Below, piece by piece: positions 290-37,948 of a DNA stretch of 64,000 nucleotides. A model generated the notes under the pieces. It was given only the letters and a program-made list of their open reading frames with translations. It searched no databases and was not told the DNA's origin. Source of the stretch: Eledone cirrhosa (lineage: Eukaryota); contig OZ024763.1 in the NCBI GenBank assembly GCA_964016885.1, forward strand, positions 20,336,001-20,400,000, in the 5' to 3' direction. Numbering within the stretch: the stretch's first letter is position 1; each line of letters begins with the position of its first letter. Both the position numbers and the translations under genes were made by a program.

Positions 290-293
<4 letters not shown>

Positions 294-525
294 TAAAGTA
301 GATGGCTGGTATTAAGTCAACATTCTTTGGCCAAATGAATCTGCTGAATTGCAGTAATGCAGCAGCAATATTTATATATATATATATAAACAGCTGAGTA
401 GATGTATGTTATGGAGTGGCATACCAGCCATCGATGAAACTGCATATTGATAGTATTGCTCTCTGAAACGATCGTAAAACATTGTATAATTTACTACTTC
501 ACATAGTTTTCTTATTTTTTATGTA
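290..525 (+). mobile_element. Fold-back fragment with hammerhead 3' half (family H)
   Basis: Inverted repeat gatggctggtat (301-312) / ataccagccatc (421-432). The motif tGAAAcgatcgTAaaac is shared with the minus-strand hammerhead at 22314-22495. Flanked by (TA)n. Confidence 0.5.
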
Positions 526-619
526 ATACATATATACATATATACATACATACATATATATATATTTATATATATAAACCATAGAGCAAATATTTATTAA
601 AATAAGAGATTAAAGTTTA

Positions 620-667
<48 letters not shown>

Positions 668-760
668 GTATGTATATATATATATGTATGTATGATATAT
701 ATTATCCTTATCGAGCCCTCTTCGGATTTTAGTCTTCACGTTTATTATTAATATAAATAA

Positions 761-1098
761 TCATCATCATCATCATTTTACCTCCACTTTTCCCTGCTTG
801 CAAGGGTGGGACGGGAACTGATTATGGCTTGATTTCTACAGCTGGATGCCCTTCCTAACACCAACCTCATTTACAGTGAGTGCTGGGTGCTTTTTTTTCC
901 GTGGCACCTGCACGACCACTTTGCAGTGGAATGATATGGACCCCAGTCCCTATCATCTCATTTTTACAGCTGAGTAAACTGGAGCAATGTGAAATAAAGT
1001 GTCTTGCTCAAGGAAACAACATATCACCCGGTGTGAGAATTGAACTCACAACCTTTCGATTGCAAGGCCAATGCTCTAACCACTAAGCCATGTGCCTC
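761..1098 (-). mobile_element. Full-length tRNA-derived SINE (CORE-like central domain, (TGA)n tail)
   Basis: Minus strand reads gaggcacatggcttagtggttagagc (A box), gagttcaattctc (B box), ccttgagcaagacactttatttcacattgctccag, then tgatgatga tail. Near-identical to 62659-63024. Confidence 0.85.
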
Positions 1099-1215
1099 TC
1101 TATATGTATATATATATTAGAAAATGTGTGAGATCCTTGGTACAGTTAGGTATATATGAAATAAAGGAAAAGAATTACTTCACTTGTAGTGTTAAAAAAT
1201 TTAATGATTTAATGT

Positions 1216-1712
1216 TATAATATAATATTATAATATAATATTATAATATAATATTATAATATAATATTATAATATAATATTATAATATAATATTATAATA
1301 TAATATTATAATATAATATTATAATATAATATTATAATATAATATTATAATATAATATTATAATATAATATTATAATATAATATTATAATATAATATTAT
1401 AATATAATATTATAATATAATATTATAATATAATATGATAATATAATATTATAATATAATATTATAATATAATATTATAATATAATATTATAATATAATA
1501 TTATAATATAATATTATAATATAATATTATAATATAATATTATAATATAATATTATAATATAATATTATAATATAATATTATAATATAATATTATAATAT
1601 AATATTATAATATAATATTATAATATAATATTATAATATAATATTATAATATAATATGATAATATAATATTATAATATAATATGATAATATAATATTATA
1701 ATATAATATTAT
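1216..1712. repeat. 13-bp pure-AT minisatellite (TTATAATATAATA)n
   Basis: Direct reading; about 38 near-perfect units. Confidence 0.95.
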
Positions 1713-1739
1713 GAGTTGGTAGATATATATGTATGTATA

Positions 1740-2260
1740 TGGGTAGATACACCCTATTGAACATTTCTCTTTCAACATTTGGCCAACTACGACCACACTG
1801 GATAATATCAATGTCTTTATACACATTTAAGATGGAGGCCCTCCTCATTTTGTACTCACTGTCCGTGAGCGGCTTGATATCGAAATTTCAGGACATTTTC
1901 TGTGTTGACGAGGGCCCCATTAATGGCCAAAAGAAAGACCTGACTTAACGCCATGTGATTTTCTTGTGGAGATGGACAAAGGAAGAAATTTAGAGCTCAA
2001 AACTAAAAACTCTGACTGAATTGGAGGAACGCATTCATCATGAACTGACCAACATCCAACCTGAGTTTCTGATTAAGCCAATCGAGGATGAGGACAACCC
2101 AGATGATTAAAAACACTGGTTGACATCCTATGTAGAATTTTATCAATGTACTGTACTGTAATCTTACAATTATTCTGTTCAAAATAGAAAAAAAGTTTTA
2201 TTAAAATCGACTAATAATGAATAAAGATATTAACAGTTTTGAATAAAGTTTTCCACCTCT
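1740..2260 (+). pseudogene. Degraded Tc1/mariner-superfamily transposase C-terminus
   Basis: Translation across stops and frameshifts gives DGGPPHFVLTVRERLD...RGPH*WPKERPDLTPCDF.LW...KTLTELEERI, matching the QDGAPPH...WPxRSPDLTPCDFFLWG motifs of DDxD transposases. Confidence 0.8.
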
Positions 2261-2809
2261 ACGCTCCAAAACGCAGTCATTGTTGCAACAACACACATAT
2301 ACTGACCTCCACACACACACTTACACACATATATACATACATACCTCTCCATACACAAACACGCACATAGAGATCCCTTCTTACATTCACAAACACACGC
2401 ATTCATAAACCTAGCGCATGCATTACAGAGCTCTCTTTCACACACTCACACATATACTCTCTCATACACACACACATACTCTCTCACACACCACACACAT
2501 ATTCTCACACATACTGACACACACTCACACACGCACTCACACACGCACTCACACATACACACTCACACACACACTCACACTCACACTCACACACACACTC
2601 ACACTCACACTCAAACACACTCACTCACATGCACTACACCATATTATAGAACGGTTTGTACCTTTGGACCAGTTTCATTTGATTCTGAGCCATTGTTCTT
2701 CTTTAACTCTCTCTCTCCCACTATACCACACTCTCTCTACCTCTCTCTCCCACTATACCACACTCTCACTACCTCCCTCTCTCACCCACTCTACCACATT
2801 TTTCTACCT

Positions 2810-4815
2810 CCCACCCTCTTCTAATCCTCCTCCCACCCTCTTCTAATCCTCCCCTCACTCTCCTCTAATCCTCCCCTCACTCTCCTCCCACCCTCTTAAA
2901 ATCCTCCTCCCATCTACTTCTATTCCTCCTCCCACCCTCTTCTATTCCTCCTCCCACCCTCTTCTAATCCTCCCCCACCCTCTTCTATTCCTCCCCCACC
3001 CTCTTCTAATCCTCCCCACCCTCTTCTATTCCTCCCCCCACCCCCTTCTAACCCCCCCCCTCTTCTATTCCTCCCCCACCCTCTTCTAATCCCCCCACCC
3101 ACTTCTATTCCTCCCCCACCCTCTTCTATTCCTCCCCCACCCTCTTCTAATCCCCCCCACCCTCTTCTAATCCTCCTCCCGCCCTCTTCTAATCCCCTCC
3201 CACCCTCTTCTAATCCCCTCCCACCCTCTTCTATTCCTCCTCCCACCCTCTTCTATTCCTCCTCCCGCCCTCTTCTATTCCTCCTCCCGCTCTCTTCTAA
3301 TCCTCCTCCCACCCTCTTCTAATCCTCCCCCCACCCTCTTCTATTCCTCCTCCCGCCCTCTTCTAATCCTCCCCCCACCCTCTTCTATTCCTCCTCCCAC
3401 CCTCTTCTATTCCTCCTCCCGCCCTCTTCTAATCCCCCCCGCCCTCTTCTATTCCTCCTCCCACCCTCTTCTATTCCTCCTCCCGCCCTCTTCTAATCCT
3501 CCTCCCGCCCTCTTCTAATCCTCCTCCCACCCTCTTCTAATCCTCCTCCCCCCACCCTCTTCTAATCCTCCTCCCGCCCTCTTCTAATCCTCCTCCCACC
3601 CTCTTCTAATCCTCCTCCCGCCCTCTTCTAATCCTCCTCCCACCCTCTTCTATTCCTCCTCTCTCTCTCTTCTAATCCTCCTCCCACTCTCTTCTAATCC
3701 TCCTCCCACCCTCTTCTAAACCTCCTCCCGCCCTCTTCTATTCCTCCTCCCGCCCTCTTCTATTCCTCCTCCCGCCCTCTTCTAATCCTCCTCCCACCCT
3801 CTTCTAATCCTCCTCCCGCCCTCTTCTAATCCTCCTCTCTCTCTCTTCTAATCCTCCTCCCACCCTCTTCTATTCCTCCTCCCGCCCTCTTCTAATCCTC
3901 CTCCCACCCTCTTCTATTCCTCCTCCCGCCCTCTTCTATTCCTCCTCCCGCCCTCTTCTAATCCTCCTCCCAGCCTCTTCTATTCCTCTCCCCGCCCTCT
4001 TCTAATCCTCCTCCCACCCTCTTCTAATCCTCCTCCCCCCACCCTCTTCTAATCCTCCTCCCGCCCTCTTCTAATCCTCCTCCCACCCTCTTCTAATCCT
4101 CCTCCCACCCTCTTCTATTCCTCCTCCCACCCTCTTCTATTCCTCCTCTCTCTCTCTTCTAATCCACCCTCTTCTAAACCTCCTCCCGCCCTCTTCTATT
4201 CCTCCTCCCGCCCTCTTCTAATCCTCCTCCCGCCCTCTTCTATTCCTCCTCCCGCCCTCTTCTAATCCTCCTCCCACCCTCTTCTATTCCTCCTCCCGCC
4301 CTCTTCTATTCCTCCTCCCGCCCTCTTCTAATCCTCCTCCTCTCTCTCTTCTAATCCTCCTCCCAGCCTCTTCTATTCCTCCTCCCGCCCTCTTCTAATC
4401 CTCCTCCTCTCTCTCTTCTAATCCTCCTCCCACCCTCTTCTATTCCTCTCTCTCTTCTAATCCTCCACCCACCCTCTTCTATTCCTCCTCCCGCCCTCTT
4501 CTAATCCTCCTCCCACTCTCTTCTAATCCTCCTCCCGCCCTCTTCTAATCCTCCTCCCGCCCTCTTCTAATCCTCCTCCCGCCCTCTTCTAATCCTCCTC
4601 CCGCCCTCTTCTAATCCTCCTCCCGCCCTCTTCTATTCCTCCTCCCGCCCTCTTCTAATCCTCCTCCCGCCCTCTTCTAATCCTCCTCCCGCCCTCTTCT
4701 AATCCTCCTCCCGCCCTCTTCTAATCCTCCTCCCGCCCTCTTCTATTCCTCCTCCCGCCCTCTTCTATTCCTCCTCCCGTCCTCTTCTATTCCTCCTCCC
4801 GTCCTCTTCTAATCC
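2810..4815. repeat. About 22-bp polypyrimidine minisatellite (CCCTCTTCTAATCCTCCTCCCG)n
   Basis: Period 22, e.g. 4581 to 4603. Strongly strand-asymmetric. Confidence 0.95.
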
Positions 4816-5577
4816 ACCTCCCACTCTCCTCCTCTCATCTCACTCACTCTCACTCACTCTCACTCACTCTCACTCACTCACTCTCACTCACTCACTCTCA
4901 CTACTCTTCCTCTCTCACATTCGCTTCACTCACCCGTGTCTCCCCTCCCAACCTCCTCTCACCCGTGTCTTTCTCCCACTCCTCTCTCTTTCTCCTATCA
5001 CCCACTCCTCTCTGTTCTCTACTCCCTTCAGCCACCTCCTGACTCCTTTCCTTATCACCCACTCAAGTACTCCGGTGCATTAGGTCCACCTGGTATCTTA
5101 CCACACCTATGTGTGTGTGTATATACACACACACCTATGTGTGTGTGTATATATATACACACCTATATGTGTGTGTGTGTATATATATACACACCTATAT
5201 GTGTGTGTGTATATATATACATGTGTTCCCGTACGTTTATCAATCTGTATGTTGTATTATTTTAATTTATTATTTTCTTATCTGAAACAAAACAAATTTG
5301 TAATTTCCGGTGACTGTTAAAACCTTTTGTCAATATTTCGTTTCGTCTGACACATTAGGTGGTGTGGTGGCGGAGATCTATGTCCATTCATCTCGTTATT
5401 ACCTTGGAGATATTACAACTTACACGAGATTATCATTACACAGAAATAACAAATAACAAAGAAATAACAAATACAAATTACACAGAAATAACAAAGAAAA
5501 CGTAGAGTACATTGAAGAAATATATTAGTTTAACACTTGAAATAGCAGGAAAGAGTCTGAACGTGTCTGTTATATAT

Positions 5578-5609
<32 letters not shown>

Positions 5610-5666
5610 CATGCTACCAATTAAAATACACGCACCCTGTTATGTTTCATTTAGCATTTATTATTA

Positions 5667-6650
5667 GGGCGGTGGATTGGTAGTATCGGTAGAGGGTCGG
5701 ACGCCATGCTTTCCAGCATAGTTACGTCCCTTTACGATCTGAGTTCAAATCCCGCCGAGGTTGACTTTGCCTTTCATCCTTACGGGGTCGATAAAATAAA
5801 GTAGCAGTAATGCACTGGGTAATTGCTGGCCTTGTGCCTAAAGTAGAAACAATTATCTCATTTATTTGAGGGCGACGGATTGGCAGAATCGGTAGAGCGT
5901 CGCACTCTATGCTCTGCAGCATAGAGTTACAGACCTTTACGTTCTGAGTTCAAATCCCGCCGAGGTTAACTTTGGTACTTTATTTTATCGACCCCGTAAG
6001 GATAAAAGGCAGTCACGCACTGGGGTCATTTTAATCGACTTTCCCCTCCCCCAAAATTGCTGGCCTTGTGCCTATATAAGAAACCATTATTAGTTAGGTG
6101 CTTTTCGGCATTATTAGTTAGTATCGGCATTATTAGTTAGTATCGGCAGAGGGTCGGACGCCATGCTTTCCAGCATAGTTACGTCCCTTTACGATTTGAG
6201 TTCAAATCCCGCCGAGGTTAACTTTGCCTTTCATCCTTACGGGGTCGATAAAATAAAGTACCAGTAATGTACTGGATAATTGCTGGCCTTGTGCCTAAAG
6301 TAGAAACCATTATTAGTTAGGTGCTTTTCGGCATGTCCCTTAGAATGCTGAGTTCAATTCCCACCGAGGTTAGCTTTGCCTTTCATCCTTACGGGATCGA
6401 TAAAATTAAGTAGCAGTAACGCAATGGGGTCGACCTAATCGCCCCTAATTTGTCCTTCCTTTTCATATTGCGGGCCTTGTGCTAAATGTAGAAGCGATTT
6501 CAGGGCGGTGACTTAGCAGTTTAACATGCTTCGTGATTCATAGTTACCATAGTTACGTTCGGAGTTCAAATCCCGCCGAGGTTGGCTTTGCCTTTCTTCC
6601 AACGCAAAGCCCGGTCTGAGAATCGAACTCACAACCTCACATTTTCAAGC
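5667..6650 (+). mobile_element. Cluster of 4-5 head-to-tail tRNA-derived SINE copies (Meta-domain-like)
   Basis: Repeated gggcggtggattggcagtatcggtagag...gagttcaaatcccgccgaggttaactttgcctttcatccttacggggtcgataaaataaagtaccag...tgctggccttgtgcctaaagtagaaac. Confidence 0.85.
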
Positions 6651-6658
6651 CCAATATA

Positions 6659-6692
<34 letters not shown>

Positions 6693-6699
<7 letters not shown>

Positions 6700-7130
6700 A
6701 TACTTTGGGAGGGTCATGTTGCCAATAAGAAACACACGCACCAGTTGCTTTCACTTCAATTTATTATATATTTATAAATTTATAAATTTACAAATCTACA
6801 AACTTATAAATTTCTGGTTGGTTGGTTGGTTCCACAACCAGATAGTTGTTTATATATAGTCATAGTCCTTTCGTCACACACTCTGTGACCTCTTCAGTGA
6901 CTGGGGATTCCTTTGTTTGTTTCTGTGCCTTTCCTTTCTTCTGTCCTACGCCATTTTCAAATTTATAAATTTAAAAATTTATAAATTTATAAATATATAA
7001 TAAATTGAAGTGAAAGCAACTGGTGCGTGTGTTTCTTATTGGCAACATGACCCTCCCAAAGTGTAACAATATCGGTTTCAACACACGATTTCAGATAAAG
7101 AATCTTGCTAAACAAATTCAGAAACGAAAT
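6693..7130 (+). mobile_element. Fold-back Penelope-like pLTR fragment, family F
   Basis: About 95-bp inverted repeat (6693-6789 vs 6975-7071) plus a one-sided tail ending cagaaacgaaat(AT)n. Second copy at 23933-24250. Contains a hammerhead. Confidence 0.75.
6858..6902 (-). ncRNA. Minimal type I hammerhead ribozyme
   Basis: AGUCA CUGAAGA G GUCACA gagug UGUGAC GAAA GGAC UA/UGACU: stem I AGUCA:UGACU, 6-bp stem II, minimal stem III, one extra G after the core. Confidence 0.75.
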
Positions 7131-7379
7131 ATATATATATATATATATATATATGCAAATACACACAAACACGTGACGTGCGCACACACATGCTCACGCA
7201 CAAGAGAAACATACATATTCATACACACTAACTTGGCAAACACGGACGAACATGTGTACACACACACTAACACGTGAAACATGCAATAAAAACACAAATA
7301 CACACGAACAAAAACGTGAAAAACAGGCGATAAACACACACACACACGTGAAAACACACACACACACATAGGGAAAAAA

Positions 7380-7700
7380 GGTGATAAGCACGCACACTTA
7401 CTCACACACACTCACACACACTCACGCGATAAGCACGCACACTTACTCACACACACTCACGCGATAAGCACGCACACTTACTCACACACACTCACACACA
7501 CTCACGCGATAAGCACGCACACTTACTCACACACACTCACACACATTCACACACACTCACGCGATAAGCACGCACACTTACGCGATAAGCTCGCATACTT
7601 ACTCACACACACTCACGCGATAAGCACGCGCACTTACGCGATAAGCTCACACACTTACTCACACACACACACACTCACACACACACTCACACACACATAC
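7380..7700. repeat. Imperfect minisatellite (GATAAGCACGCACACTTACTCACACACACTCACGC)n
   Basis: Direct reading. Confidence 0.85.
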
Positions 7701-8088
7701 TCCCATAATGCCATACATTGGTCCAACAACACTGACACAATGTTCTTTCAAAAATGGTTGCCAGGAACTGCAGCAGACTAAAACCGTTCTAGAAGGAAGC
7801 TAGAGAAAGTGGGGCTGTGGTGTGGTGTGGTGTAGTGGTGGTGGGGAGAGAAATTATCGATTTTTCACAAGAGAATATATGAAACCTGATCGAACTGGTT
7901 GCTGACATATACTTCAATCTTTAGATAAAGATATTCTCTTTTGAAATGGCATTAGAATAACTAGATAGATCGATTGGTAGATAGGTAGTTAGATTGGTAG
8001 ATAGGAAGGTAGAGATAGGTAGATAGGAAGGTAGTTAGATTGGTAGATAGGAAGGTAGAGATAGGTAGATAGATAGAGAGATGGATAT

Positions 8089-8127
<39 letters not shown>

Positions 8128-8440
8128 GTTTTAATATAGATGAGATTCTACAGGACTAGAACTGTTTCATTCTTTAGAAATCATCAGGATTCCTGATGAT
8201 TTCTAAAGAATGAAACAGTACTCAATACATTGCAGAGTATAAAAGTTTTAATATAGATGAGATTCTACAGGACTAGAACTGTTTCATTCTTTAGAAATCA
8301 TCAGGATTCCTGATGATTTCTAAAGAATGAAACAGTTCTAGTCCTGTAGAATCTCATCTATATTAAAACTTTTATACTCTGCAATGTATTGAGTACCTTA
8401 CTTACTGTGGTTACTTCCGATTCAACCCGGAATAGCGTAT
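8128..8440 (+). mobile_element. Nested double fold-back insert, family A (hammerhead-bearing)
   Basis: Two palindromes centred on catcaggattcctgatg (about 8190 and 8307) plus tail ...ctgtggttacttccgattcaacccgg. Flanked by (TA)n. Confidence 0.8.
8305..8353 (+). ncRNA. Type I hammerhead ribozyme (family A)
   Basis: GAUUC CUGAUGA UUUC UAAA GAAU GAAA CAG uucuaguc CUG UA/GAAUC: all three stems present, GUA cleavage triplet, U-U at the base of stem II. Confidence 0.8.
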
Positions 8441-8578
8441 ATATATATATATATATATATACATACACACATATAACTAGATCTACAAAACCAAATTGTG
8501 AAGTTATATTATTAAATTACATTAAATTGTTTAGAACTACACGTGAAGTCATTTTCCCCATTTTTTTAAAATATAGAT

Positions 8579-8898
8579 ATATTTCTTTATTAGCCACAGG
8601 AGCACAAAAGAAGGGGACAAGTACAAAGGGGGAAGTTTACATACAATAAAAACGTGTAAAATGTTATCACAAATGGAATTTAAAAAGTTAGTCGATTTTC
8701 CCCAATAGAGGGAGACAGTTTGGGTAACACATACCCCCGAAAAAAAATGTGCAACCCTCATCTCCAGGAGTACGAAGAGCTTGTACTCCTTTCCTCTCCT
8801 CCTCCTTTTCCTCAACCTACAGGCTGATATAGAGAGAAGGCCCATTCACTCGGGCCATTCTCGCCACTTTCACCCACCTTTCATAAAACTTTCTGGGG
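8579..8898 (-). mobile_element. 3' end of an L1/Tx1-like LINE
   Basis: Minus strand encodes PRKFYERWVKVARMARVNGPSLYISL*, followed by a 3' UTR ending gtggctaataaagaaata. Confidence 0.55.
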
Positions 8899-9217
8899 TA
8901 TATATAGATAGATAGATAGACAGATAGACAGACAAATTGATAGCTAGGTATGCAGAAATATATACTATTTATTTTCATACAAAAGCACTACCTAAGGTTT
9001 CAAGGCGCAATTTTGACCATCATTCTAGATTGTAAAGAGTTAAAAGATCCCATTACTCCTTGTGGAATCGTAGAGGCATCGTCATACGACGTGTCTAGGG
9101 CACTTTTAAACCTGGCGGAGCCCAACACTCTCCAGTTCTGAACACAGCCGATTTTTTTCTATAGAGGAAGAATCGACCCCAGTACTGGACTGGTACTTAT
9201 ATGTATATATATATATA

Positions 9218-9880: not shown

Positions 9881-10091
9881 TTACCCGCCCTAGATATAGA
9901 GATTATATTAAGAATGAGATGTCGTGTTTCGCAAATGTTCAGCTTCGTCTCATGGATTGATTTCTTCTTCTTCTGACTCAATAGAGATTAGAACCAGGAT
10001 ATGTTCATCTCTCATAACTGAACCGGTCATTGGCAAACACGTGCTACGCGTGATTACGATTAAAATATGTTAATTTGAAGCTTCGATCAAT

Positions 10092-10160
10092 CATTTTATA
10101 AATATATATAAAGGTATCTGACTGAGTAGTTAGTGAACTATAACTCTCCCTCCCTCTCTC

Positions 10161-10194
<34 letters not shown>

Positions 10195-10269
10195 GAGAGA
10201 GAGAGAGAGAGAGGAAGTTATAGTTCACTAACTACTCAGTCAGATACCTTTATATATATTTATAAAATG
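10092..10269. repeat. Palindrome with about 55-bp unique arms around a (CT)n/(GA)n core
   Basis: cattttataaatatatataaaggtatctgactgagtagttagtgaactataact and its reverse complement; centre ctctcgagag. Confidence 0.9.
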
Positions 10270-10317: not shown

Positions 10318-10504
10318 CAAGGGAAAAGTGGTAAGGAACCAGGTGGACCATAACGCACCAAAGTACTCAATACTTAGGGTAGTAGAGTGGGTAATAGGAG
10401 TAAGTAAGACCCCGACGGCTGAGCTCAAGCCGTTTCGACGGCTAATTCTGTACTCAATTAGCCGTCGAAACGGCTTGAGCTCAGCCGTCGGGGTCTTACT
10501 TACT

Positions 10505-10509
<5 letters not shown>
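10317..10509 (-). mobile_element. Fold-back insert, family B (hammerhead 3' half)
   Basis: Palindrome 10394-10509 containing GAAA CGGC uugagcuca GCCG UC GGGGUC. One-sided tail. Related copy at 18319-18490 and a fragment near 5053-5108. Confidence 0.7.
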
Positions 10510-10537: not shown

Positions 10538-10732
10538 GTAGGTCCCGGGTTGAATCGGGGATAACCACAGTAATTAAGGTACTCAATACATGGCAGAGTA
10601 AAAATTTTTTATATTTTATAGAAGGAGCTTCTACAGGACTAGTACTGTTTCATTCAGATGAAATCTTCCTGAAGATTTCATCTGAATGAAACAGTACTAG
10701 TCCTGTAGAAGCTCCTTCTATAAAATATAAAA

Positions 10733-10734
<2 letters not shown>
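10537..10734 (-). mobile_element. Fold-back insert, family A, with hammerhead at 10665-10711 (+)
   Basis: CUUC CUGAAGA UUUC AUCU GAAU GAAA CAG uacuaguc CUG UA GAAG; (TA)n on both sides. Confidence 0.8.
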
Positions 10735-10772
<38 letters not shown>

Positions 10773-10777
10773 ATGTA

Positions 10778-11002
10778 TCCCGGGTTCAATCGGGGGTAAC
10801 CACAGTAAGGAAGGTACTCAATACATAGCAGAGTATAAATATTTAATATAGAAATGGCTTCTACAGGACTAGAACTGTTTCATTCCAAGGAAATCATCAG
10901 GAATGAAACAGTTCTAGTCCTGTAGAAGCCATTTCTATAGTAAATATTCATACACTGTTATGTATTGAGTACCTTACTGTGGTTAACCCCGATTGAACCC
11001 GA
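10778..11002. mobile_element. Fold-back insert, family A, with hammerhead at 10859-10903 (-)
   Basis: Near-symmetric arms. Minus strand reads UUC CUGAUGA UUUCCUUGGAAU GAAA CAG uucuaguc CUG UA GAA. Confidence 0.8.
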
Positions 11003-11112: not shown

Positions 11113-11175
<63 letters not shown>

Positions 11176-11220
11176 GAGAGTAAAACAAAGAAGCCTTCAA
11201 TACATCAAAAGTCTTTATTA

Positions 11221-11258
11221 GCCGACAATGTTTCGTCCTATTAAGGACTCATCAGGGC
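11221..11258 (-). ncRNA. Canonical minimal hammerhead ribozyme
   Basis: GCC CUGAUGA GUCC uuaaua GGAC GAAA CAUUG UC/GGC: perfect core with GUC cleavage triplet. Confidence 0.9.
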
Positions 11259-11319
11259 AATTAAAACAAGAAGTAATATCGGCAGATACAAGCCGGTATT
11301 ACTTCTTCTTGTTTTAATT

Positions 11320-11357
11320 ACCCTGATGAGTCCTTAATAGGACGAAACATTGTCGGC
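11320..11357 (+). ncRNA. Minimal hammerhead ribozyme (mirror copy, one stem I mismatch)
   Basis: ACC CUGAUGA GUCC uuaaua GGAC GAAA CAUUG UC GGC. Confidence 0.85.
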
Positions 11358-11530
11358 TAATAAAGACTTTTGATGTATTGAAGGCTTCTTTGTTTTACTC
11401 TCTTAATTTTTCGGCTCTGTTTAACTACATTGAGCTATACCTTTTACTGTCATTTCTATAATACGAAGAGGGTGTTTAACTCTAACACACTCCAGTATTT
11501 TAACCCTTATATATATATATATATATATAT

Positions 11531-11733
11531 AATAGCTTTCACCGTATTTTTTTACTAAAGAAATTTTAGCCTGATAATGGGGTTTAGAACCCTCAGATAA
11601 ATGGAAAAAGATGAGTATTGACGTCAATACTCATCTTTTTCCATTTTTCTGAGGGTTCTAAACCCCATTATCAGGCTAAAATTTCTTTAGTAAAAAAATA
11701 CGGTGAAAGCTATTCTATTTTCTAATTTCAAAC

Positions 11734-11735
<2 letters not shown>
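11531..11735. repeat. Near-perfect palindrome with about 90-bp arms (family D)
   Basis: Centre ttgacgtcaa at 11622/11623, short one-sided tail, (TA)n flanks. Confidence 0.9.
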
Positions 11736-11773
<38 letters not shown>

Positions 11774-11811
11774 TAAAATAACAGATTAAAGTTTAAGCAA
11801 AGAATCGCTGC

Positions 11812-11849
<38 letters not shown>

Positions 11850-12219
11850 TTTTAGTATATGTTGGTTGTTTACCGATACCTCAGTATACAGATTGGAGCA
11901 CTCGACGAAGTACGCAGGCTGGTTTGTTTACTCCGCAGTAATGTAAAATAAAATAAGTCAAATATGTAAAATTTGGCTTCGTTAAGTTTACTGCTATATA
12001 TATAGCAGTAAACTTATTATTTTTTAATATATATATATATATATATATAGGGAGAGGACAAAGAGTCATATTTTTTTTGAGAAACATATAGTATAGAACA
12101 AATATAAAATGTAGGAAAATATAAAATTACCTTAAAGTATGTATATTGCTTCCTTCTTTTCTCTCTATATACATCTTTTAAACTATATATATATATTTAG
12201 AGAGAGAGAGTAAGGGGCA

Positions 12220-15200
12220 GAGTAAAGACCCCCATTGGTCACGAATGACCTTGGGATTTGAACCTAGAAAGTTGACCTCCGAGGTGAAAACCAGCAGTCA
12301 CCCATGCATACCAGTCTCTCCTCTCTACACCACCGATGTTGTCCAAGGGAAAGGCAATGGCTGATACAGCTTGACACCAGTGACATCGCAACTGTATATA
12401 TACATTATATATACTATATGATGTTGTCTAAGGGAGAGGCAATGGCTGATACAGCTTGGCACCAGTGACATAGCAACTGTATATATACATTATATATACT
12501 ATATGATGTTGTCCAAGGGAAAGGTAATGGCTGATACAGCTTGACACCAGTGACATCGCAACTGTATATATACATTATATATACTATATGATGTTGTCCA
12601 AGGGAAAGGTAATGGCTGATACAGCTTGACACCAGTGACATCGCAACTGTATATATACATTATATATACTATATGATGTTGTCCAAGGGAAAGGTAATGG
12701 CTGATACAGCTTGGCACCAGTGACATCGCAACTGTATATATACATTATATATACTATATGATGTTGTCCAAGGGAAAGGTAATGGCTGATACAGCTTGGC
12801 ACCAGGGACATCGCAACTGTATATATACATTATATATACTATATGATGTTGTCCAAGGGAAAGGCAATGGCTGATACAGCTTGGCACCAGTGACATCGCA
12901 ACTGTATATATACATTATATATACTATATGATGTTGTCCAAGGGAAAGGCAATGGCTGATACAGCTTGGCACCAGAGACATCGTAACTGTATATATACAT
13001 TATATATACTATATGATGTTGTCCAAGGGAAAGGCAATGGCTGATACAGCTTGGCACCAGTGACATCGCAACTGTATATATACATTATATATACTATATG
13101 ATGTTGCCCAAGGGAAAGGTAATGGCTGATACAGCTTGGCACCAGTGACATCGCAACTGTATATATACATTATATATACTATATGATGTTGTCCAAGGCA
13201 AAGGTAATGGCTGATACAGCTTGGCACCAGTGACATAGCAACTGTATATATACATTATATATACTATATGATGTTGTCCAAGGGAAAGGTAATGGCTGAT
13301 ACAGCTTGGCACCAGTGACATCGCAACTGTATATATACATTATATATACTATATGATGTTGCCCAAGGGAAAGGTAATGGCTGATACAGCTTGGCACCAG
13401 TGACATCGCAACTGTATATATACATTATATATACTATATGATGTTGCCCAAGGGAAAGGTAATGGCTGATACAGCTTGGCACCAGTGACATAGCAACTGT
13501 ATATATACATTATATATACTATATGATGTTGTCCAAGGGAAAGGTAATGGCTGATACAGCTTGGCACCAGTGACATCGCAACTGTATATATACATTATAT
13601 ATACTATATGATGTTGCCCAAGGGAAAGGTAATGGCTGATACAGCTTGGCACCAGTGACATCGCAACTGTATATATACATTATATATACTATATGATGTT
13701 GCCCAAGGGAAAGGTAATGGCTGATACAGCTTGGCACCAGTGACATAGCAACTGTATATATACATTATATATACTATATGATGTTGTCCAAGGGAAAGGT
13801 AATGGCTGATACAGCTTGGCACCAGTGACATCGCAACTGTATATATACATTATATATACTATATGATGTTGCCCAAGGGAAAGGTAATGGCTGATACAGC
13901 TTGGCACCAGTGACATAGCAACTGTATATATACATTATATATACTATATGATGTTGTCCAAGGGAAAGGTAATGGCTGATACAGCTTGGCACCAGGGACA
14001 TCGCAACTGTATATATACATTATATATACTATATGATGTTGTCCAAGGGAAAGGTAATGGCTGATACAGCTTGGCACCAGTGACATAGCAACTGTATATA
14101 TACATTATATATACTATATGATGTTGTCCAAGGGAAAGGTAATGGCTGATACAGCTTGGCACCAGTGACATCGTAACTGTATATATACATTATATATACT
14201 ATATGATGATGTCCAAGGGAAAGGTAATGGCTGATACAGCTTGGCACCAGTGACATCGCAACTGTATATATACATTATATATACTATATGATGTTGCCCA
14301 AGGGAAAGGTAATGGCTGATACAGCTTGGCACCAGTGACATCGTAACTGTATATATACATTATATATACTATATGATGTTGCCCAAGGGAAAGGTAATGG
14401 CTGATACAGCTTGGCACCAGTGACATCGCAACTGTATATATACATTATATATACTATATGATGTTGCCCAAGGGAAAGGTAATGGCTGATACAGCTTGGC
14501 ACCAGTGACATAGCAACTGTATATATACATTATATATACTATATGATGTTGTCCAAGGGAAAGGTAATGGCTGATACAGCTTGGCACCAGTGACATCGTA
14601 ACTGTATATATACATTATATATACTATATGATGTTGCCCAAGGGAAAGGTAATGGCTGATACAGCTTGGCACCAGTGACATCGCAACTGTATATATACAT
14701 TATATATACTATATGATGTTGCCCAAGGGAAAGGTAATGGCTGATACAGCTTGGCACCAGTGACATAGCAACTGTATATATACATTATATATACTATATG
14801 ATGTTGCCCAAGGGAAAGGTAATGGCTGATACAGCTTGGCACCAGTGACATCGCAACTGTATATATACATTATATATACTATATGATGTTGTCCAAGGCA
14901 AAGGTAATGGCTGATACAGCTTGGCACCAGTGACATCGCAACTGTATATATACATTATATATACTATATGATGTTGTCCAAGGCAAAGGTAATGGCTGAT
15001 ACAGCTTGGCACCAGTGACATCGCAACTGTATATATACATTATATATACTATATGATGTTGCCCAAGGGAAAGGTAATGGCTGATACAGCTTGGCACCAG
15101 TGACATCGCAACTGTATATATACATTATATATACTATATGATGTTGCCCAAGGGAAAGGTAATGGCTGATACAGCTTGGCACCAGTGACATCGCAACTGT

Positions 15201-15570: not shown

Positions 15571-15589
15571 ACTATATATATATATATAT

Positions 15590-15989: not shown

Positions 15990-16322
15990 GTAGAAGTTAT
16001 ATTTAATTTGTTGGGATTCCAACAAACGTAAAAGTTTATAACTGATATAGAAACTCAACACATTACTGGAGTAAATATTCAATATATTAATAAATGGAAA
16101 CTATACTTATAAAACCATAATTATTTTATTATATATATTTTAGGACCACCAAGCCAATCTTGGTGCGCTTTCATCAGATAAAATACAAAAATTGTTTTAT
16201 AAATAGTGACATAACCATGGAAAACAACCATATCCAGCGAATTTTCAACCGTCATGGTTCTTTTCCATGGTGATGTCACTATTTATAAACAAATTTTGTA
16301 TTTTATCTGATGAAAGCGCACC
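15990..16322 (-). mobile_element. Fold-back insert related to family E, with mutated hammerhead at 16124-16183 (-)
   Basis: Inverted arms 16162-16224 / 16261-16322. Minus strand UUUUAU CUGAUGA AAGCG CACCAAG auugg CUUGGUG GUCCU AAAA UAUAUA UA AUAAAA (GAAA changed to AAAA). Confidence 0.65.
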
Positions 16323-18112: not shown

Positions 18113-18154
18113 AATCTTAATATACGTCTGGATCGGTCATCAGACAGATGACAT

Positions 18155-18222
18155 CTCTGTCTGATGACCGATCCGGACGTATATTATTATTGTCTGGTAT
18201 CCAGAAACCTTTGGTAATGGAG
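18155..18222 (+). ncRNA. Type I hammerhead ribozyme within fold-back insert 18114-18252 (family G)
   Basis: CUCUGU CUGAUGA [CCGAUCCGGAC...GUCUGGUAUCCA] GAAA CC uuu GG UA/AUGGAG. Preceded by its own inverted copy at 18119-18147. Confidence 0.7.
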
Positions 18223-18318
18223 TAGTTATATTTTGTGTTGTACACTTTCTAAATATATATATATATATACACATATTGAAAGGAAAACAAGGACGATGGA
18301 TTACTCCTATATATATAT

Positions 18319-18489
18319 AGGAAAATGTTTGACCCCGACGGCAGAGCTCAAGCCGTTTCGACGGCTATTTCTGGACTCTGAGCTCTGCCGTCGGGGTCAG
18401 ACATTTCCCTATTACCCACTGTACTACCCGAAGTATTGAGTACTCTGGTGCGTTATGGTCCATCTGGTTCCTTACCACACCTCCTTCGT

Positions 18490-18490
<1 letters not shown>
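18319..18490 (+). mobile_element. Fold-back insert, family B
   Basis: gaccccgacggcagagctca...tgagctctgccgtcggggtc plus a tail homologous to 10317-10400. Confidence 0.75.
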
Positions 18491-22495: not shown

Positions 22496-22550
<55 letters not shown>

Positions 22551-22673
22551 AGGTGAGTTTTATTGTAGTACAATAAAGCAATGCAGATATCGGATAAGAA
22601 GCACTCTACAGTTTGTAGGACTGGAGTATACATAATATATAAGATCAAAAGATGGTTAAAGGAGTTCCATGTA

Positions 22674-22740
22674 TTTTATTATGCGCATTTCAAAAACAAA
22701 CATCATCATGCAATAATATTTGTGTTTTCATCAGATAAAA
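22674..22740 (-). ncRNA. Type I hammerhead ribozyme (family E)
   Basis: Exact reverse complement of 22863-22929. Confidence 0.8.
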
Positions 22741-22862
22741 CAGGAGAACATGATATGAAGGCTAAAAAACACTTGTGGATAGTGCAGTTTTAAATCAACA
22801 TATGTTGATTTAAAACTGCACTATCCACAAGTGTTTTTTAGCCTTCATATCATGTTCTCCTG

Positions 22863-22929
22863 TTTTATCTGATGAAAACACAAATATTATTGCATGATGA
22901 TGTTTGTTTTTGAAATGCGCATAATAAAA
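22863..22929 (+). ncRNA. Type I hammerhead ribozyme (family E)
   Basis: UUUUAU CUGAUGA [AAACACAAAUAUUAUUGCAUGAUGAUGUUUGUUUUU] GAAA UGCGCA UA/AUAAAA; 6-bp stem I, palindromic stem III. Confidence 0.8.
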
Positions 22930-22961
22930 TACATGGAACTCCTTTAACCATCTTTTGATCT

Positions 22962-23000
<39 letters not shown>

Positions 23001-23093
23001 TGTATGTAAAAGGTAAACAGAAATAACAACACAATCGGTACAGTATATGGAAGGAATATATTAGTTTAACGCTTGAAATACCAGGAAGAGGAT

Positions 23094-23127
23094 CATAACG
23101 TTTCGGGCGCTAGTCCTTCATCAGACA
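23094..23127 (-). ncRNA. Penelope-type minimal hammerhead core
   Basis: UGU CUGAUGA AGG acuagcg CCC GAAA CG UU AUG. Flanking aatatattagtttaacgcttgaaata recurs near 5520 and 35978. Confidence 0.65.
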
Positions 23128-23932: not shown

Positions 23933-23938
<6 letters not shown>

Positions 23939-24245
23939 ATACTTTGGGAGGGTCATGTTGCCAATAAGAAACACACGCACCAGTTGCTTTCACTTCAATT
24001 TATTATATATTTATAAATTTATAAATTTACAAATCTACAAACTTATAAATTTCTGGTTGGTTGGTTGGTTCCACAACCAGATAGTTGTTTATATATAGTC
24101 ATAGTCCTTTCGTCACACACTCTGTGACCTCTTCAGTGACTGGGGATTCCTTTCTTTGTTTCTGTGCCTTTCCTTTCTTCTGTCCTACGCCATTTTGTTT
24201 CTGTGTGTGTCAGATAAAGAATCTTGCTAAACAAATTCAGAAACG

Positions 24246-24250
<5 letters not shown>
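23933..24250 (+). mobile_element. Family F copy with hammerhead at 24097-24141 (-)
   Basis: Near-identical to 6693-6957, joined directly to the tail cagataaagaatcttgctaaacaaattcagaaacgaaat. Confidence 0.8.
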
Positions 24251-25380: not shown

Positions 25381-25439
25381 AAAGATATACCTTCAAAGAA
25401 GATATACCTTCATTGTGCATGTAAACAACCTAGAACTGT

Positions 25440-26000
25440 AATGTGTTGATATAAACACAATCATTTCTCCCCGGATCGCGAGAGCTCAAGTTTCGTGCCA
25501 TCGTGCAATCGTCAGCGAGGCGGAAATAATTTAGTGTGCTGGCAAATCTATAATGCTGGACAAGGAGGTTTTAAGTTACGAAATCATGAGTGTATCTAAT
25601 TGAAATTAACATTGAAATTGCATTCACCTCATTCTACTTGAAACATTAAAGTACTTTACTGGGGTCGCAGGTGTAATTTATATCATATCATTTGATAATA
25701 TATCCTCTCTATATACATTCTATTTTGTCACTCAGATACAGAATGATCGATATTGAACTGTATAATGTTCGTAAACCATTATTGAATGGATAGTGATCTG
25801 GTGTAGATTGAAGATATAGGTTTAATATGTATGTTAAAATGCATATATACAAGGAAAAAATAGTTGATATAAACGAAAACATCTTTGTTGGACTGAGAGA
25901 TCTCGGGTTTCGTGGAAGTTTGCACTCGTCAGCGATGCGGTTATAATTTACTAGGCTGGCTAACAGATTTCAACGAAATTTGAGATCTCGCCATCGGAAA
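25440..26000 (-). mobile_element. Two degenerate hammerhead-like direct repeats about 417 bp apart
   Basis: Minus strand CUGACGA UUGC acgaug GCAC GAAA CUUGAG (about 25477-25517) and CUGACGA GUG caaacuuc CAC GAAA CCCGAG (about 25895-25934), with shared flanks. Confidence 0.5.
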
Positions 26001-27876: not shown

Positions 27877-27878
<2 letters not shown>

Positions 27879-28066
27879 GCTGAATAATGAGTCTTGTTAC
27901 TCTGGAGTTTCGCCTGTTTGTCACAGAGTTATGAGATCTGATGAACCTGTCATAAACAGGCGAAACTCCTCCACAGTAAAAAGACTGACTATTCAGTCGT
28001 TTTAAAATCAATATTAAAACTCTACGTCGGTATTGAATACTCCTGTCTGTTAGCCGTCAATCAACT

Positions 28067-28070
<4 letters not shown>
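27877..28070 (+). mobile_element. Imperfect fold-back insert, family I, hammerhead core at 27938-27978
   Basis: CUGAUGA A CCUGU cauaa ACAGG C GAAA CU ccuccac AG UA; inverted arm gctgaata...ggagtttcgcctgttt; (TA)n flanks. Confidence 0.65.
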
Positions 28071-28163: not shown

Positions 28164-28435
28164 CATGTATGTATATATATATACTGTACGTCTGTATACA
28201 TATATGTATGTACGTATACATACTTACATTTAAGTATCAGCCGTACTAAGAGTGAGAAATGAAATTTCGTTTCATTCTTTTCCATTTATCGTTTTTGGTG
28301 CGCCCGGCCGGCTAACTCACTCGATATGCAAATTAGGCTGCTCAGCCGTTAATATGCATTTCGGGCTGTTTGTTTGTTTACAAACAAATCGAACATTATA
28401 ATAAATGTTCGGTAAATCCATACGTACATATATAT

Positions 28436-28620
28436 ATGTTACGTCGGTTCGATTCACGGAGGTTTAAATCTTATGAATTTAGTGTCGATCCTGTGTCTGC
28501 AGAAGATAGATCTTTATAACTTTACTTAACAACAAGTTAGAAAGATCTATCTTCTGCAGACACAGGATCGCCACTAAATTCATAAGATTTAAACCTCCGT
28601 GAATCGAACCGACGTAACAT
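28436..28620. repeat. Palindrome with about 80-bp arms (family K), followed by unique tail
   Basis: atgttacgtcggttcgattcacggagg...gaagatagatcttt / aaagatctatcttc...gaatcgaaccgacgtaacat. Confidence 0.9.
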
Positions 28621-29505
28621 AGCTTTCAACTAGGATACCCACTACACTGCACGAACCACCACAGAAATATAATCATTAAGTACATTCTAGCCTTCTTAGT
28701 TCTATACCACACTAATGTCTGTAAGTACCTCATCAACCCATAAACTTATCTCTTCTCAGCTGCTGTCAGCACTTGATCCTAAATCCAAGAACATTTCAAA
28801 ATACTACTACAACAGAACTTTACCTTCCTCTTGCTATAATTATAGTCAGCATGTTTTCTCTTTATATGTATGTATGTATGTGTATGTGTATATATATATA
28901 TGTTTGTGTGCATATATATATATATATATATGTGCCTCCTTAACCTCTGTATTAACTTGCCCATTATTTTGCTACTTTGTTAGTGTTGTTTTATACATGT
29001 ATGTTATTGATGATGAGAAAGCTAGACAGCCCTCTCATCTAATATAGACCACACAAATTTCACTACAGTGATAAACCCTTCATCTGTCAGACAATAACCG
29101 ACTCTTACGGCCACCTGACCTACATTGTTTAAAAACACCAACTTATCTTTACACTAGATATAATACACCCTACGACAGTTTTTACATGTCAATTTTATAC
29201 ATCTGCCTCATGTCAGCTAGTTTTACACGCTAAAATCGTAGATATACTATACTTCCCACCTAGATTGATGTTGTGATTATTTCAAATAATTTATTGCTAG
29301 CATTGTTGTTATTGTTCTGACTGAATGCCAGTATATTCTTTTCATTCTCGCAAGCTCCGATGAACTGACTGGTTATAACTTTGTATTGGCGTTCGAGTAA
29401 CGTGAAAATAAGCGGATACCGATCACCTACCAGTTCAGAGAAACAATTGTCAGCAATGAGGATTAAAAACCTTTTTTGTATAGCAAACCGTGTCACTCTT
29501 CTTTC

Positions 29506-35439: not shown

Positions 35440-35471
<32 letters not shown>

Positions 35472-35895: not shown

Positions 35896-35928
<33 letters not shown>

Positions 35929-36016
35929 GCAAAAAGGAAACATAAATAACAAAACAAACAACACAGTACAATGAAGAAATATATTAGTTTTATGCTTGAT
36001 ATTGTATATATATATG

Positions 36017-36160
36017 TATTTAATATAGAAATGGCATCTACAGCACTAGAACTGTTTCATTCAGGAGAAATCATGTATTGAGTACCTTACTTACTGTGGT
36101 TACACCTGATTGAACCCAGGATAAACATATATATATAAAATTGTGTATGTATCTCTCTCT

Positions 36161-36191
<31 letters not shown>

Positions 36192-36410
36192 AATGGCTTC
36201 TACAGGACTAGAACTGTTTCATTTGAAGTCATCAGGAAAGCTGACTGTCATATCACCATATCACAATGACAGTTGGCTTCCTGATGATTTCCTTCAAATG
36301 AAACATTTCTACTCCTGTAGAAGCCATTTCTATATTAAACATTTATACTCTGCTATGTATTGAGTACCTTATTTACTGTGGTTGCCCCCGAGCAAATCCG
36401 GTATAAACAT
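36017..36410 (+). mobile_element. Two further family A fold-back inserts (36017-36126; 36191-36410 with hammerhead at 36275-36325)
   Basis: GGCUUC CUGAUGA UUUCCUUCAAAU GAAA CAU uucuacuc CUG UA GAAGCC: stem I covaries relative to the 8305 copy. Confidence 0.75.
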
Positions 36411-37078
36411 ATGTATGTACACATGGAAAATCGCTAATTTTTCTAGGCTGGCCTGTTGATTTTTTAAAAACTAGAATTAGTCGTTTAGTTTACATATTGA
36501 GACCCCAACCCATCTTATTTATTTTATAACTTATGGGATTTCTTGTCATGTGTAATGTTCTTTTTAATGTCTAAAGAAAATTAATTGTTGCAGAAATGCT
36601 ACCACTTAAAATAAAATGTCACCTGAGATAGATTAGCAAAATTTAATAAACAGTGGGGGGGTTGGGTGTAAAAAAATCTGTAAGATTAATAAAGGCATCC
36701 GATTTTGTTGTCCAGCCTACATGCATACTCTTGTGTGTGTTGAGCTGGTACTTATCCCACTTCAAGGCAGGATCTAGTACAGATCGAACCTGACTCTGCA
36801 GATGCAAGTTCCTCAGATATGTTTTGCATTTTCAAAGCATTACCATACAACAACTATATATATATATATAAATAATATTATAATTGAATATAAAAGAAAA
36901 ATGAACACAGATATATATACCTTAGCGAATGTGGTCCCTTGTGATTTGAACACATATATGTATATATCTGTGCTCATTTTTCTTTTATATTCAATTATAA
37001 TATACGGCTCGGAAAAATCTCTTTCCTAGAGCTATTTTATTGTAAGAGACTATTTTGAGTTTCTAACTCAATATATAC

Positions 37079-37111
<33 letters not shown>

Positions 37112-37119
<8 letters not shown>

Positions 37120-37520
37120 AGATCAAAAGATGGTTAAAAGAGTTCCATGTATTTTATTATGCGCATTTCAAAAACAAACATCATCATGCAATAATATTTG
37201 TGTTTTCATCAGATAAAACAGGAGAACATGATATGAAGGCTAAAAAACACTTGTTGATAGTGCAGTTTTAAATCAACATATCTATCCACTATCCACAAGT
37301 GTTTTTTAGCCTTCATATCATGTTCTCCTGTTTTATCTGATGAAAACACAAATATTATTGCATGATGATGTTTGTTTTTGAAATGCGCATAATAAAATAC
37401 ATGGAACTCCTTTAACCATCTTTTGATCTTATATTATGCATACTCCAGTCCTACAAACTGTAGAGTGCTTCTTATCCGATATCTGCATTGCTTTATTGTA
37501 CTACAATAAAACTCACCTCC

Positions 37521-37522
<2 letters not shown>
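37112..37522 (+). mobile_element. Family E copy with hammerheads at 37152-37218 (-) and 37331-37397 (+)
   Basis: Near-identical to 22547-22970 in opposite orientation, with a different fold-back junction. Confidence 0.85.
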
Positions 37523-37558
<36 letters not shown>

Positions 37559-37559
<1 letters not shown>

Positions 37560-37948
37560 TGAAAGGATAACAAGGACCATTGGTTACTCCTTCATTACAT
37601 TTATTGGTAGGTGACACGTGTTTCGCCACTGATCAGCTCAAGGTTCGATCTGTATCGATCTTACCCGACTCAATAATCAGCAGCTCGACGGACCCTTATA
37701 GCATTTTAAAGGGTCCGTCGAGCTGCCGATTATTGAGTCGGGTAAGATCGATACAGATCAAAACTTGAGCTGATCAGTGGCGAAACGCGCGTCACCTACC
37801 AATAAATGTAATGAAGGAGTAACCAATGGTCCTTGTTATCCTTTCAATATATTACACTCTGTCTAGCTCTACACCTCAACACAGAAGTGAACCTAAACAT
37901 CGAGTTCTCACCCGGGTGAACCTGCAGTAACTCCAAGTTACACTCCCT
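37559..37948 (+). mobile_element. Fold-back insert, family J (about 140-bp arms, hammerhead 3' half)
   Basis: Arms 37559-37698 / 37710-37848; GAAA CGCGCG UC ACCU at 37782-37797; 100-bp tail; fragment near 18276-18308. Confidence 0.75.

Follow-up and report, generated by a model that had tools for sequence, protein, structure and literature searches.

Fold-back inserts in (TA)n tracts of Eledone cirrhosa as ends of Penelope-like elements, with a candidate two-cDNA origin

Fold-back elements of the window

The window considered here, i.e. 64,000 nucleotides of the Eledone cirrhosa genome (assembly GCA_964016885.1, contig OZ024763.1, positions 20,336,001 to 20,400,000 of the forward strand), harbors a dense population of short fold-back elements, most of which are inserted in (TA)n microsatellites. 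These inserts are almost certainly the 3' ends of autonomous Penelope-like elements (PLEs), made up of a pseudo-long terminal repeat (pLTR) plus tail. Probably, they represent head-to-head pLTR-plus-tail pairs from two cDNAs that were copied on PLE RNA, ran off its presumed capped 5' end and were end-joined. No host gene was seen in the window, the content of which otherwise consists of satellites, short interspersed elements (SINEs) and fragments of long interspersed elements (LINEs).

By reading of the sequence, about 22 fold-back elements from 14 families were recognized, mostly in (TA)n. A first-pass annotation of the same DNA had described about 20 short inserts of one shared architecture, with two arms and a one-sided tail, an account that is borne out by this count and by the tail rule described below. 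It had also proposed at least ten sequence-unrelated families; their number holds, although the tails of F1 and F2 share an 11-nt motif and are thus not fully unrelated. An inverted-repeat scan (arms of at least 30 nt, identity of at least 90%, spacers of at most 300) returned 20 matches, all within 5768-37852, two of which are chance SINE pairs, and some elements were counted twice. Under a strict rule that requires one end within 5 nt of (TA)4+ and the other within 130 nt, ten fold-backs remain in 63.8 kb of the window. Random position pairs satisfied this rule in 146 of 16,901 trials. For comparison, 38 of 117 fold-backs (one of the 38 being a redundant outer pair) passed in 75 evenly placed 10-kb samples (749.8 kb) of the 2,996-Mb, 1,796-contig genome, i.e. 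5.1 per 100 kb (bootstrap 3.3-6.9). The window is hence about threefold denser than the genome average under the strict rule, and four adjoining 10-kb stretches contained no fold-back under the survey. Extrapolated to the genome, the load would amount to approximately 1-2 x10^5 fold-backs. Every family that was successfully searched proved to be a dispersed repeat; genome searches for the F5 tail and for sequence upstream of F2 gave no match, with very common words being skipped.

Two elements belong to F4, a putative Neptune-type PLE end. At 6692..7128, flanked by (TA)n on both sides, a tailless arm (6692-6954, sense -, hammerhead core 6897) faces a tail arm (6959-7128), and at 23934..24248 a long tailless arm (core 24136, -) is joined to a tail piece of 37 nt. 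The putatively Hydra-type F1 contributes a double fold-back of four alternating pieces (F1a, 8128..8440) with a full hammerhead at 8310 (+) and the tail at 8370-8440, a fold-back with its tail on the left and a core at 10669 (+) (F1b, 10538..10733), one with both arms tailed and a core at 10900 (-) (F1c, 10772..11001), as well as two F1-type fold-backs at 36010-36130 and 36189-36410, the second with a core at 36281 (+). F2, likewise Hydra-type, occurs at 10319..10509, with the tail on the left and both arms beginning within loop II of a U3-A8-variant hammerhead, and at 18317..18490, with the tail on the right. A third Hydra-type family, F3 (11171..11508), has cores at 11255 (-) and 11323 (+) and its tail on the right. 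F5 is represented by a fold-back whose arms of 175 nt adjoin without a spacer, with cores at 22734 (-) and 22869 (+) and a left tail (22548..22976), and by another with cores at 37212 (-) and 37337 (+) and a right tail (37115..37531). The F9 fold-back (28435..28690) has its centre at the sequence encoding the C-terminus of a Hydra-type PLE, and its right arm continues into the 3' untranslated region (UTR), while F16 is present as short ends at 11766..11813 (-), ~558-620 and 23579-23729.

The remaining families are less firmly connected to coding sequences. F6/F18 (15990..16322, tail left, right arm shortened) and F7 (18118..18252, core 18161, +) each have one link to a Neptune-type open reading frame (ORF), weak in both cases; F10 (37554..37948, tail right) is weakly linked, by one match (E 4e-5), to the end of a Hydra-type ORF; and F14, a single arm on the minus strand (23003..23125, core 23124) without an inverted partner, has a single weak ORF link as well. 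No ORF link was found in 1.8 Mb of fetched genome sequence for F8 (11531..11737, spacer zero), F11 (36875..37085, tail right), F12 (10040..10269, with a (CT)n/(AG)n centre), F13 (27878..28070, with a short inverted arm and a core at 27938, +) and F17 (11850..12025, short, tail left). F12, a putative PLE, had no further copy in these 1.8 Mb.

Apart from the fold-backs, the window contains a tandem array (12330-15460) with about 40 copies of a 78-nt unit, seemingly derived from a segment of a SINE, a broken LINE with endonuclease and reverse transcriptase (RT) pieces (59085-61840, -) and a LINE 3' fragment (15533-15973, +). From their translations, we take the former to be CR1/L2-like and the latter RTE-like. 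Two diverged direct copies with hammerhead-like cores at 25515 and 25932 are located at 25420-25990 (-), with no other copy in the fetched sequence, and a 200-N assembly gap lies within a TA-rich tract at 18994-19193.

Parent elements and hammerhead ribozymes

Seven families (F1, F2, F3, F4, F5, F9 and F16) continue into PLE ORFs in longer copies. The F1 tail reads directly into a 758-aa frame with RWR, DKT, a CxCX5C linker, CxxC and CxH. At each of 20 loci retrieved around full-length Hydra-type frames, its pLTR and tail directly precede the ORF, and at 17 they recur downstream; the best 100 of 40,548 first-look candidates for the F1 RT include many intact frames with 95-99% identity. In F4, the tail leads into a frame of 1208 aa that contains a CX4CxxC linker and belongs to a 4304-nt tandem unit. 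F2, F3, F9 and F16 lie before or after Hydra-type ORFs, and in two long F5 copies a Hydra-like ORF end lies 900-970 nt upstream; the links of these five families are partial. The pLTR recurs as a partial tandem, and the sequence of the tail is the same as that found within the start of the ORF or immediately ahead of it. A comparison family that is absent from the window, PLE-A, encodes a 775-aa frame with Pfam matches to RVT_1 (PF00078) and GIY-YIG (PF01541). Among the PLE frames in general, atlas neighbours carry RVT_1 and HTH_animal. A Pfam search of the F1 and F4 frames gave no match, and by their motifs F4 and PLE-A are provisionally assigned to the Neptune type and F1 to the Hydra type.

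The search for RT and GIY-YIG ORFs in longer copies suggested in the first-pass annotation led to the F1 and F4 frames, single ORFs of PLE type (RT and C-terminal GIY-YIG) that are linked to the terminal repeat. Its view of Penelope-like insertions from many TA-favouring lineages agrees with the seven families that run into PLE ORFs, except that "extremely truncated" does not describe 5' ends that mostly lie, non-randomly, at a fixed edge. The reported absence of a coding partner is true of the window, yet ORFs occur elsewhere and the F9 element is centred on a PLE C-terminus.

The same annotation alternatively invoked a non-autonomous, retrozyme-like system of orphan ribozyme hairpins. Families that transpose as fold-back units, in the manner of retrozymes or miniature inverted-repeat transposable elements (MITEs), would account for the very high copy numbers, for the predominance of short, non-coding copies and for the five or six window families without an ORF link so far. 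However, the junctions differ from copy to copy and the fold-backs hence do not replicate as units but are remade at each insertion. In addition, no head-to-tail monomer arrays were found, the short copies lack an upstream promoter, F2 copies lack half of the ribozyme, seven families are firmly tied to ORFs, and intact ORFs of F1 and F4 are present elsewhere in the genome. The head-to-head arms, variable junctions and ORFs depart from non-LTR retrozymes, as do the one-sided tail and variable inner junctions from MITEs or foldback DNA transposons. This very improbable reading is largely refuted.

Several further observations concern the parent elements. PLE-A (e.g. L043:2862-5186) appears as a very young Neptune-type family, with 127 scored matches of 96-100% identity, among 34,065 first-look candidates, many of them with an intact 775-aa frame. 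An ORF beside F1 in L015 was considered as the F1 parent and rejected, as it belongs to PLE-A, which has its own pLTR. The ends of two PLE families are directly joined in L015:180-1900 (F1 head-to-head with PLE-A) and L046 (F2 tail to PLE-A), which could be mixed-template events or nested insertions, and a 1679-aa open frame ending in PLE-A (L062:1693-6729) is probably a fusion with another element. The F1 3' UTR spans several kb and is largely a microsatellite that travels with the element (L118-L119, L016, L244-L263); conceivably, it may spread new (TA)n targets. In the F4 ORF (L191, minus strand), a stretch of ~130 aa rich in Asn, His and Thr precedes the RT and is reminiscent of Asn-rich inserts that PMC3846280 describes for Penelope ORFs of rotifers. 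Longer F8 copies (L058, ~7700-7780) feature a tRNA-like cloverleaf with A- and B-box-like motifs just upstream of the short-copy start. The F8 edge could be set by tRNA processing, or F8 could be a PLE-mobilised SINE, although ARAGORN found no tRNA in ten loci including one with this cloverleaf.

Hammerhead motifs are abundant. A type I descriptor matched 11 times in the window, compared to 0.4 times per shuffle of the microsatellite-free part of 1-38000, and 103 times in the 75 genome samples, compared to once in 30 shuffled samples. Extrapolation leads to ~2.8-5.6 x10^5 motifs genome-wide. Fourteen window cores with correct stems had been proposed, of which nine fit fully (6858, 8305, 10665, 22674, 22863, 24097, 36275, 37152 and 37331). 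The other five have both core halves and are imperfect, with a 3-bp stem I (10859, 11221, 11320), an imperfect stem II base (18155) or an altered stem III region (27938). An Rfam scan gave no hammerhead and none of the 14 cores in the best 150 of 609 matches, which comprised microRNA-like hairpin noise and one tRNA-like SINE head. The F1 hammerhead, a predicted ribozyme, has an extra base ahead of stem II, and its stem I differs among subfamilies with pairing maintained. A U3-A8 variant core is found in F2 and F19, and both window copies of F2 retain only the 3' half of the ribozyme. No core was seen in the window copies of F9, F11, F12 and F17. In long F2 copies (L058, L167, L190), the U3-A8 core has a variable position 7 and a loop II of ~35-40 nt that holds the end of a TATA-like box and the putative start; only read-through RNA would therefore carry the whole F2 ribozyme. 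Hammerhead cleavage was also considered as the source of the 5' ends and rejected: no F1 end among those listed lies within 1 nt of the cleavage site, and one F2 end and one F4 locus are near theirs. In short copies, the hammerhead would accordingly be a passenger whose cleavage does not set the ends.

Arm pairs, the 5' edge and a candidate mechanism

For a closer view of the architecture, the arms of 106 head-to-head pairs from four families were mapped onto natural long copies, with the tail end set to 0. In 97 pairs, one tailed arm faces one tailless arm. The other nine, which were left out of the coupling analysis, comprise five two-tailed pairs, one tailless-only pair (a double count) and three intermediates. 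This tail rule holds for 22 of 24 pairs of F2, a family picked by no search, and for all seven full-length copies with an inverted 5' arm. The F1 and F4 loci were selected with tail queries; such selection is insufficient as an explanation, since random use of two sites would give 2:1 and not 97:5. The end of the tailless arm is fixed as well, at -56 in 31 of 31 F4 pairs.

The 5' ends of the two arms are coupled beyond chance. They lie within 12 nt of each other in 46 of 97 pairs, compared to 31.4 +/- 2.8 in 20,000 within-family permutations (maximum 43). Outside hot zones that were drawn post hoc, after the data had been seen, seven coupled pairs, including one at -1101/-1101, contrast with 1.7 expected. 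Of the unequal pairs, 37 have the longer arm on the tailless side and 14 on the tailed side. Junctions show overlaps in 42 pairs, are blunt in 11 and contain inserted bases in 44, some of these insertions being repeated copies of nearby sequence. Such templated insertions resemble polymerase-theta end joining. A quasi-palindrome of 5 nt at the F1 edge has been resolved in favour of either central base. (TA)n flanks both sides in 70 of 97 pairs, which masks any target-site duplication.

Perfect palindromes beside microsatellites are typical sites of assembly or amplification chimeras. An artefact is nonetheless extremely improbable in the light of arm ends at fixed biological positions, templated insertions and, in older copies, a divergence between arms of up to 10% or more. 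Moreover, a contig from a public run (83 nt, depth 37.8) spans the palindrome centre at 22801/22802, and among the joints listed 15 meet this position, nearly all with a depth of 30-98.

An antisense template that primes itself has been proposed by Arkhipova et al. 2013 (PMC3846280). In a self-priming or snap-back reaction, a single cDNA would fold and copy itself into a hairpin, from which the endonuclease would trim the tail on one side. This would explain the tiny spacers, coupling at any position, the tail rule and the common palindromic junctions, with the two-tailed copies (5/106) as untrimmed hairpins. However, the copied strand cannot extend 5' beyond the tailed cDNA, yet the tailless arm is the longer one in 37 of the 51 asymmetric pairs. 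Both arms of L029 reach +1, each with its own extra G, and resolution of the F1 quasi-palindrome with either central base is expected of two annealed ends. An antisense template also leaves an edge under a sense TATA box unexplained. Overall, snap-back is an unlikely origin of the pairs.

The 5' ends pile up against this one-sided boundary and are mostly not random. At loci not chosen with the respective family, 34 of 52 F1 ends fall within the 20 nt from -129 and one in the 20 nt upstream; the corresponding numbers are 60 of 96 and two for F2, and 9 of 23 and none for F5. For F4, with all loci considered, the numbers are 30 of 100 and one. In F19, 17 of 24 ends map to -214 to -210 and none to the 200 nt upstream; the end list of F20 was left out, as it was swamped by microsatellite matches. 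The sole TATA-like box in ~500 nt is located 30 nt (F1), 29 or 25 nt (F2) and 31 nt (PLE-A, with a peak of four ends only) above the main peak, and in F19, examined after the promoter idea had been noted, a TATA box lies 31 nt above the peak. Such spacing in four of 11 families corresponds to P ~2e-4 when the higher of two backgrounds is applied; if the variant TATTTAAA, admitted only after F2 had been seen, is disregarded, three of 11 families remain (P ~3e-5 at the lower, genomic background). Furthermore, F1 ends at +1 bear an untemplated G in 10 of 13 cases, compared to 18 of 96 other stops (Fisher 5e-5). This G twice directly follows (TA)n. Copying of the cap as an extra base is known from full-length LINEs and products of rapid amplification of cDNA ends. 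The edge is thus quite likely a transcription start, as read from the DNA sequence. A 3' splice site was considered as well, in view of a YAG in F1, F19 and PLE-A, and rejected: there is no constant upstream exon after the G, and F19 has no pyrimidine tract.

Alternatively, the ends could reflect ordinary 5' truncation on two independent RNAs, with RT pausing at structure near the hammerhead and the cap being irrelevant. In support, every edge is either inside a hammerhead core or no more than 70 nt away from one, seven of 11 families (F3, F4, F5, F8, F10, F14 and F18) have no TATA box at the edge, and shared hot spots yield much of the symmetry (null mean 31 of the observed 46). Against this, the edge has no fixed position relative to the ribozyme, being found at the start of stem I (F1), in loop II (F2) or ~60-70 nt upstream (F4, F5). 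It is also one-sided, and pausing would explain neither the TATA spacing in four families, nor the extra G in F1, nor the symmetry outside the hot zones. Truncation of this kind appears rather improbable. The F4 edge region contains motifs that we presume to be YY1- and NRF1-like.

Under the two-cDNA origin, the pLTR would hold the promoter, and the two RT start sites, at the pLTR end and the tail end, would lie 130-320 nt from the 5' end of the monomeric transcript. The tail forms the beginning of the element's own 5' region, and RNA initiated at the pLTR promoter would hence contain both start sites close to its cap. One complex may then nick both (TA)n strands and prime one cDNA per start site. 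As with retroviral strong-stop DNA, synthesis of both cDNAs would end at the cap, which would often be copied as an extra base, before host microhomology-mediated end joining links the two cDNA 3' ends. We lean slightly towards a single RT-endonuclease complex that routinely inserts strong-stop DNA in this way, by priming both nicked strands and copying a monomeric transcript to the cap. Whether both primings take place on one RNA is an even call; on one RNA, a tail-primed RT trailing the other would explain the coupling and the longer tailless arm. For long and full-length copies, a second class of template may be used, i.e. RNA that is multimeric or results from read-through, with priming at a downstream pLTR. 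A retrovirus-like jump from cap to 3' end was not supported for these copies in its simple form, as 9 of 43 unselected edge-reaching F1 copies pass the edge, compared to 17 of 19 full-length ones.

Several points weigh against this mechanism, among them the tail queries, the post hoc hot zones, the late-admitted TATA variant, the small PLE-A peak and the seven families without a TATA box mentioned above, and the reading of all starts from DNA sequence. The extra G is not significant in F2 (2/5 vs 3/27) and absent as a pattern in F19 (1/7); the F1 control includes subfamily mismatches, and some Gs could derive from the partner arm. Since 17 of the 20 full-length copies of F1 extend beyond the edge, the second, longer template class must be assumed. 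Finally, a strict one-RNA chase fails to predict the 14 pairs with a longer tailed arm and the long PLE-A pairs (3:4).

Implications and comparison with known systems

The elements are new families of a known class, the features of which (inverted pLTR, tail, TA targeting and hammerheads) are already published. Their end geometry makes the open question of the origin of PLE inverted repeats directly testable, and the many young insertions lead to sharp predictions, i.e. exact start sites, a cap-derived base and one arm per start site. If the proposed mechanism is true, PLE integration would be a two-primer reaction unlike the target-primed reverse transcription (TPRT) of LINEs, and the inverted pLTR, the one-sided tail and swarms of solo hammerheads would share one mechanism. 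Most solo hammerheads in animal genomes would then be by-products of PLE integration. Each mini-element would map the transcription start of its parent, and the genome would be left with more than 100,000 perfect DNA palindromes. This load may matter for repeat annotation, in which the hairpins can be mistaken for MITEs or precursors of microRNAs, and also as a putative source of double-stranded RNA for editing or silencing.

In LINE-1 twin priming, the second primer is provided by the other target strand, two cDNAs copy different stretches and the junctions are end-joined. Here, in contrast, both cDNAs would copy the same stretch, which gives a palindrome. Retroviral minus-strand strong-stop DNA is tRNA-primed and runs off the capped RNA 5' end, and it is not inserted.

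Among PLEs, inverted 5'-truncated pLTRs, one-sided tails and the (TA)n bias are described in passages of Craig et al. 2021 (PMC8557442) and Arkhipova et al. 2013 (PMC3846280). There, canonical endonuclease-containing (EN+) PLE insertions likewise exhibit head-to-head pLTRs, a tail at one end, partial tandems, palindromic junctions and microsatellite targets, with tails of 30-40 nt compared to 40-110 nt here. These passages treat 5' truncation as variable, in contrast to the coupled arms found here and to ends at a fixed edge that bears marks of a promoter and a cap, a geometry that was not found in the published texts consulted, although paper supplements may hold end maps. Craig et al. name the origin of inverted repeats and tails as open in the part concerned, and Schostak et al. 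2008 could not see an obvious route by which the pLTR is regenerated. In a passage of PMC2377424, the Drosophila Penelope transcript starts inside the pLTR. For the Hydra clade, sections of PMC8557442 list RWK (RWR in F1), DKT, CxCX5C, CxxC/CxH, a hammerhead and (TA)n targets, all in common with F1; the clade is described there as a small set of families, in contrast to the many families, young intact copies and multi-kb microsatellite-rich 3' UTR observed here. The ORFs of F4 and PLE-A resemble Neptune-type PLEs in RT, CX4CxxC linker and C-terminal GIY-YIG, from which F4 differs by its length of 1208 aa, its Asn-rich N-terminal stretch and the missing Pfam match. PLEs are abundant and recently active in octopus according to parts of PMC13282606, the passages concerned leaving hammerheads unmentioned, and PMC8967140.

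The minimal PLE hammerheads in the relevant sections of Cervera and De la Pena 2014 (PMC4209133) are alike in being type I, with a short or palindromic stem III, an extra base before stem II and the U3-A8 variant, in occurring as opposite-strand pairs 100-700 bp apart, and in residing mostly in solo truncated copies. In F2, however, the putative start site splits the ribozyme, unlike in the minimal hammerheads of these sections. Their counts of 4,000-9,000 for coelacanth and Xenopus compare with about 3-6 x10^5 here, with different descriptors. A preprint (bioRxiv 10.64898/2026.07.22.740005) regards retrozymes as PLE derivatives. A biochemical parallel is TPRT by the Poseidon PAc protein in Frangieh et al. 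2024 (PMC11167929), which, as far as the passages concerned go, nicks and extends both strands in vitro, initiates RT internally at two sites on either side of the tail and uses uncleaved RNA, ribozyme cleavage being unnecessary. These passages invoke a multi-copy mRNA for insertion and do not discuss a capped run-off or the joining of two cDNAs, the steps by which the fold-backs of E. cirrhosa would be formed.

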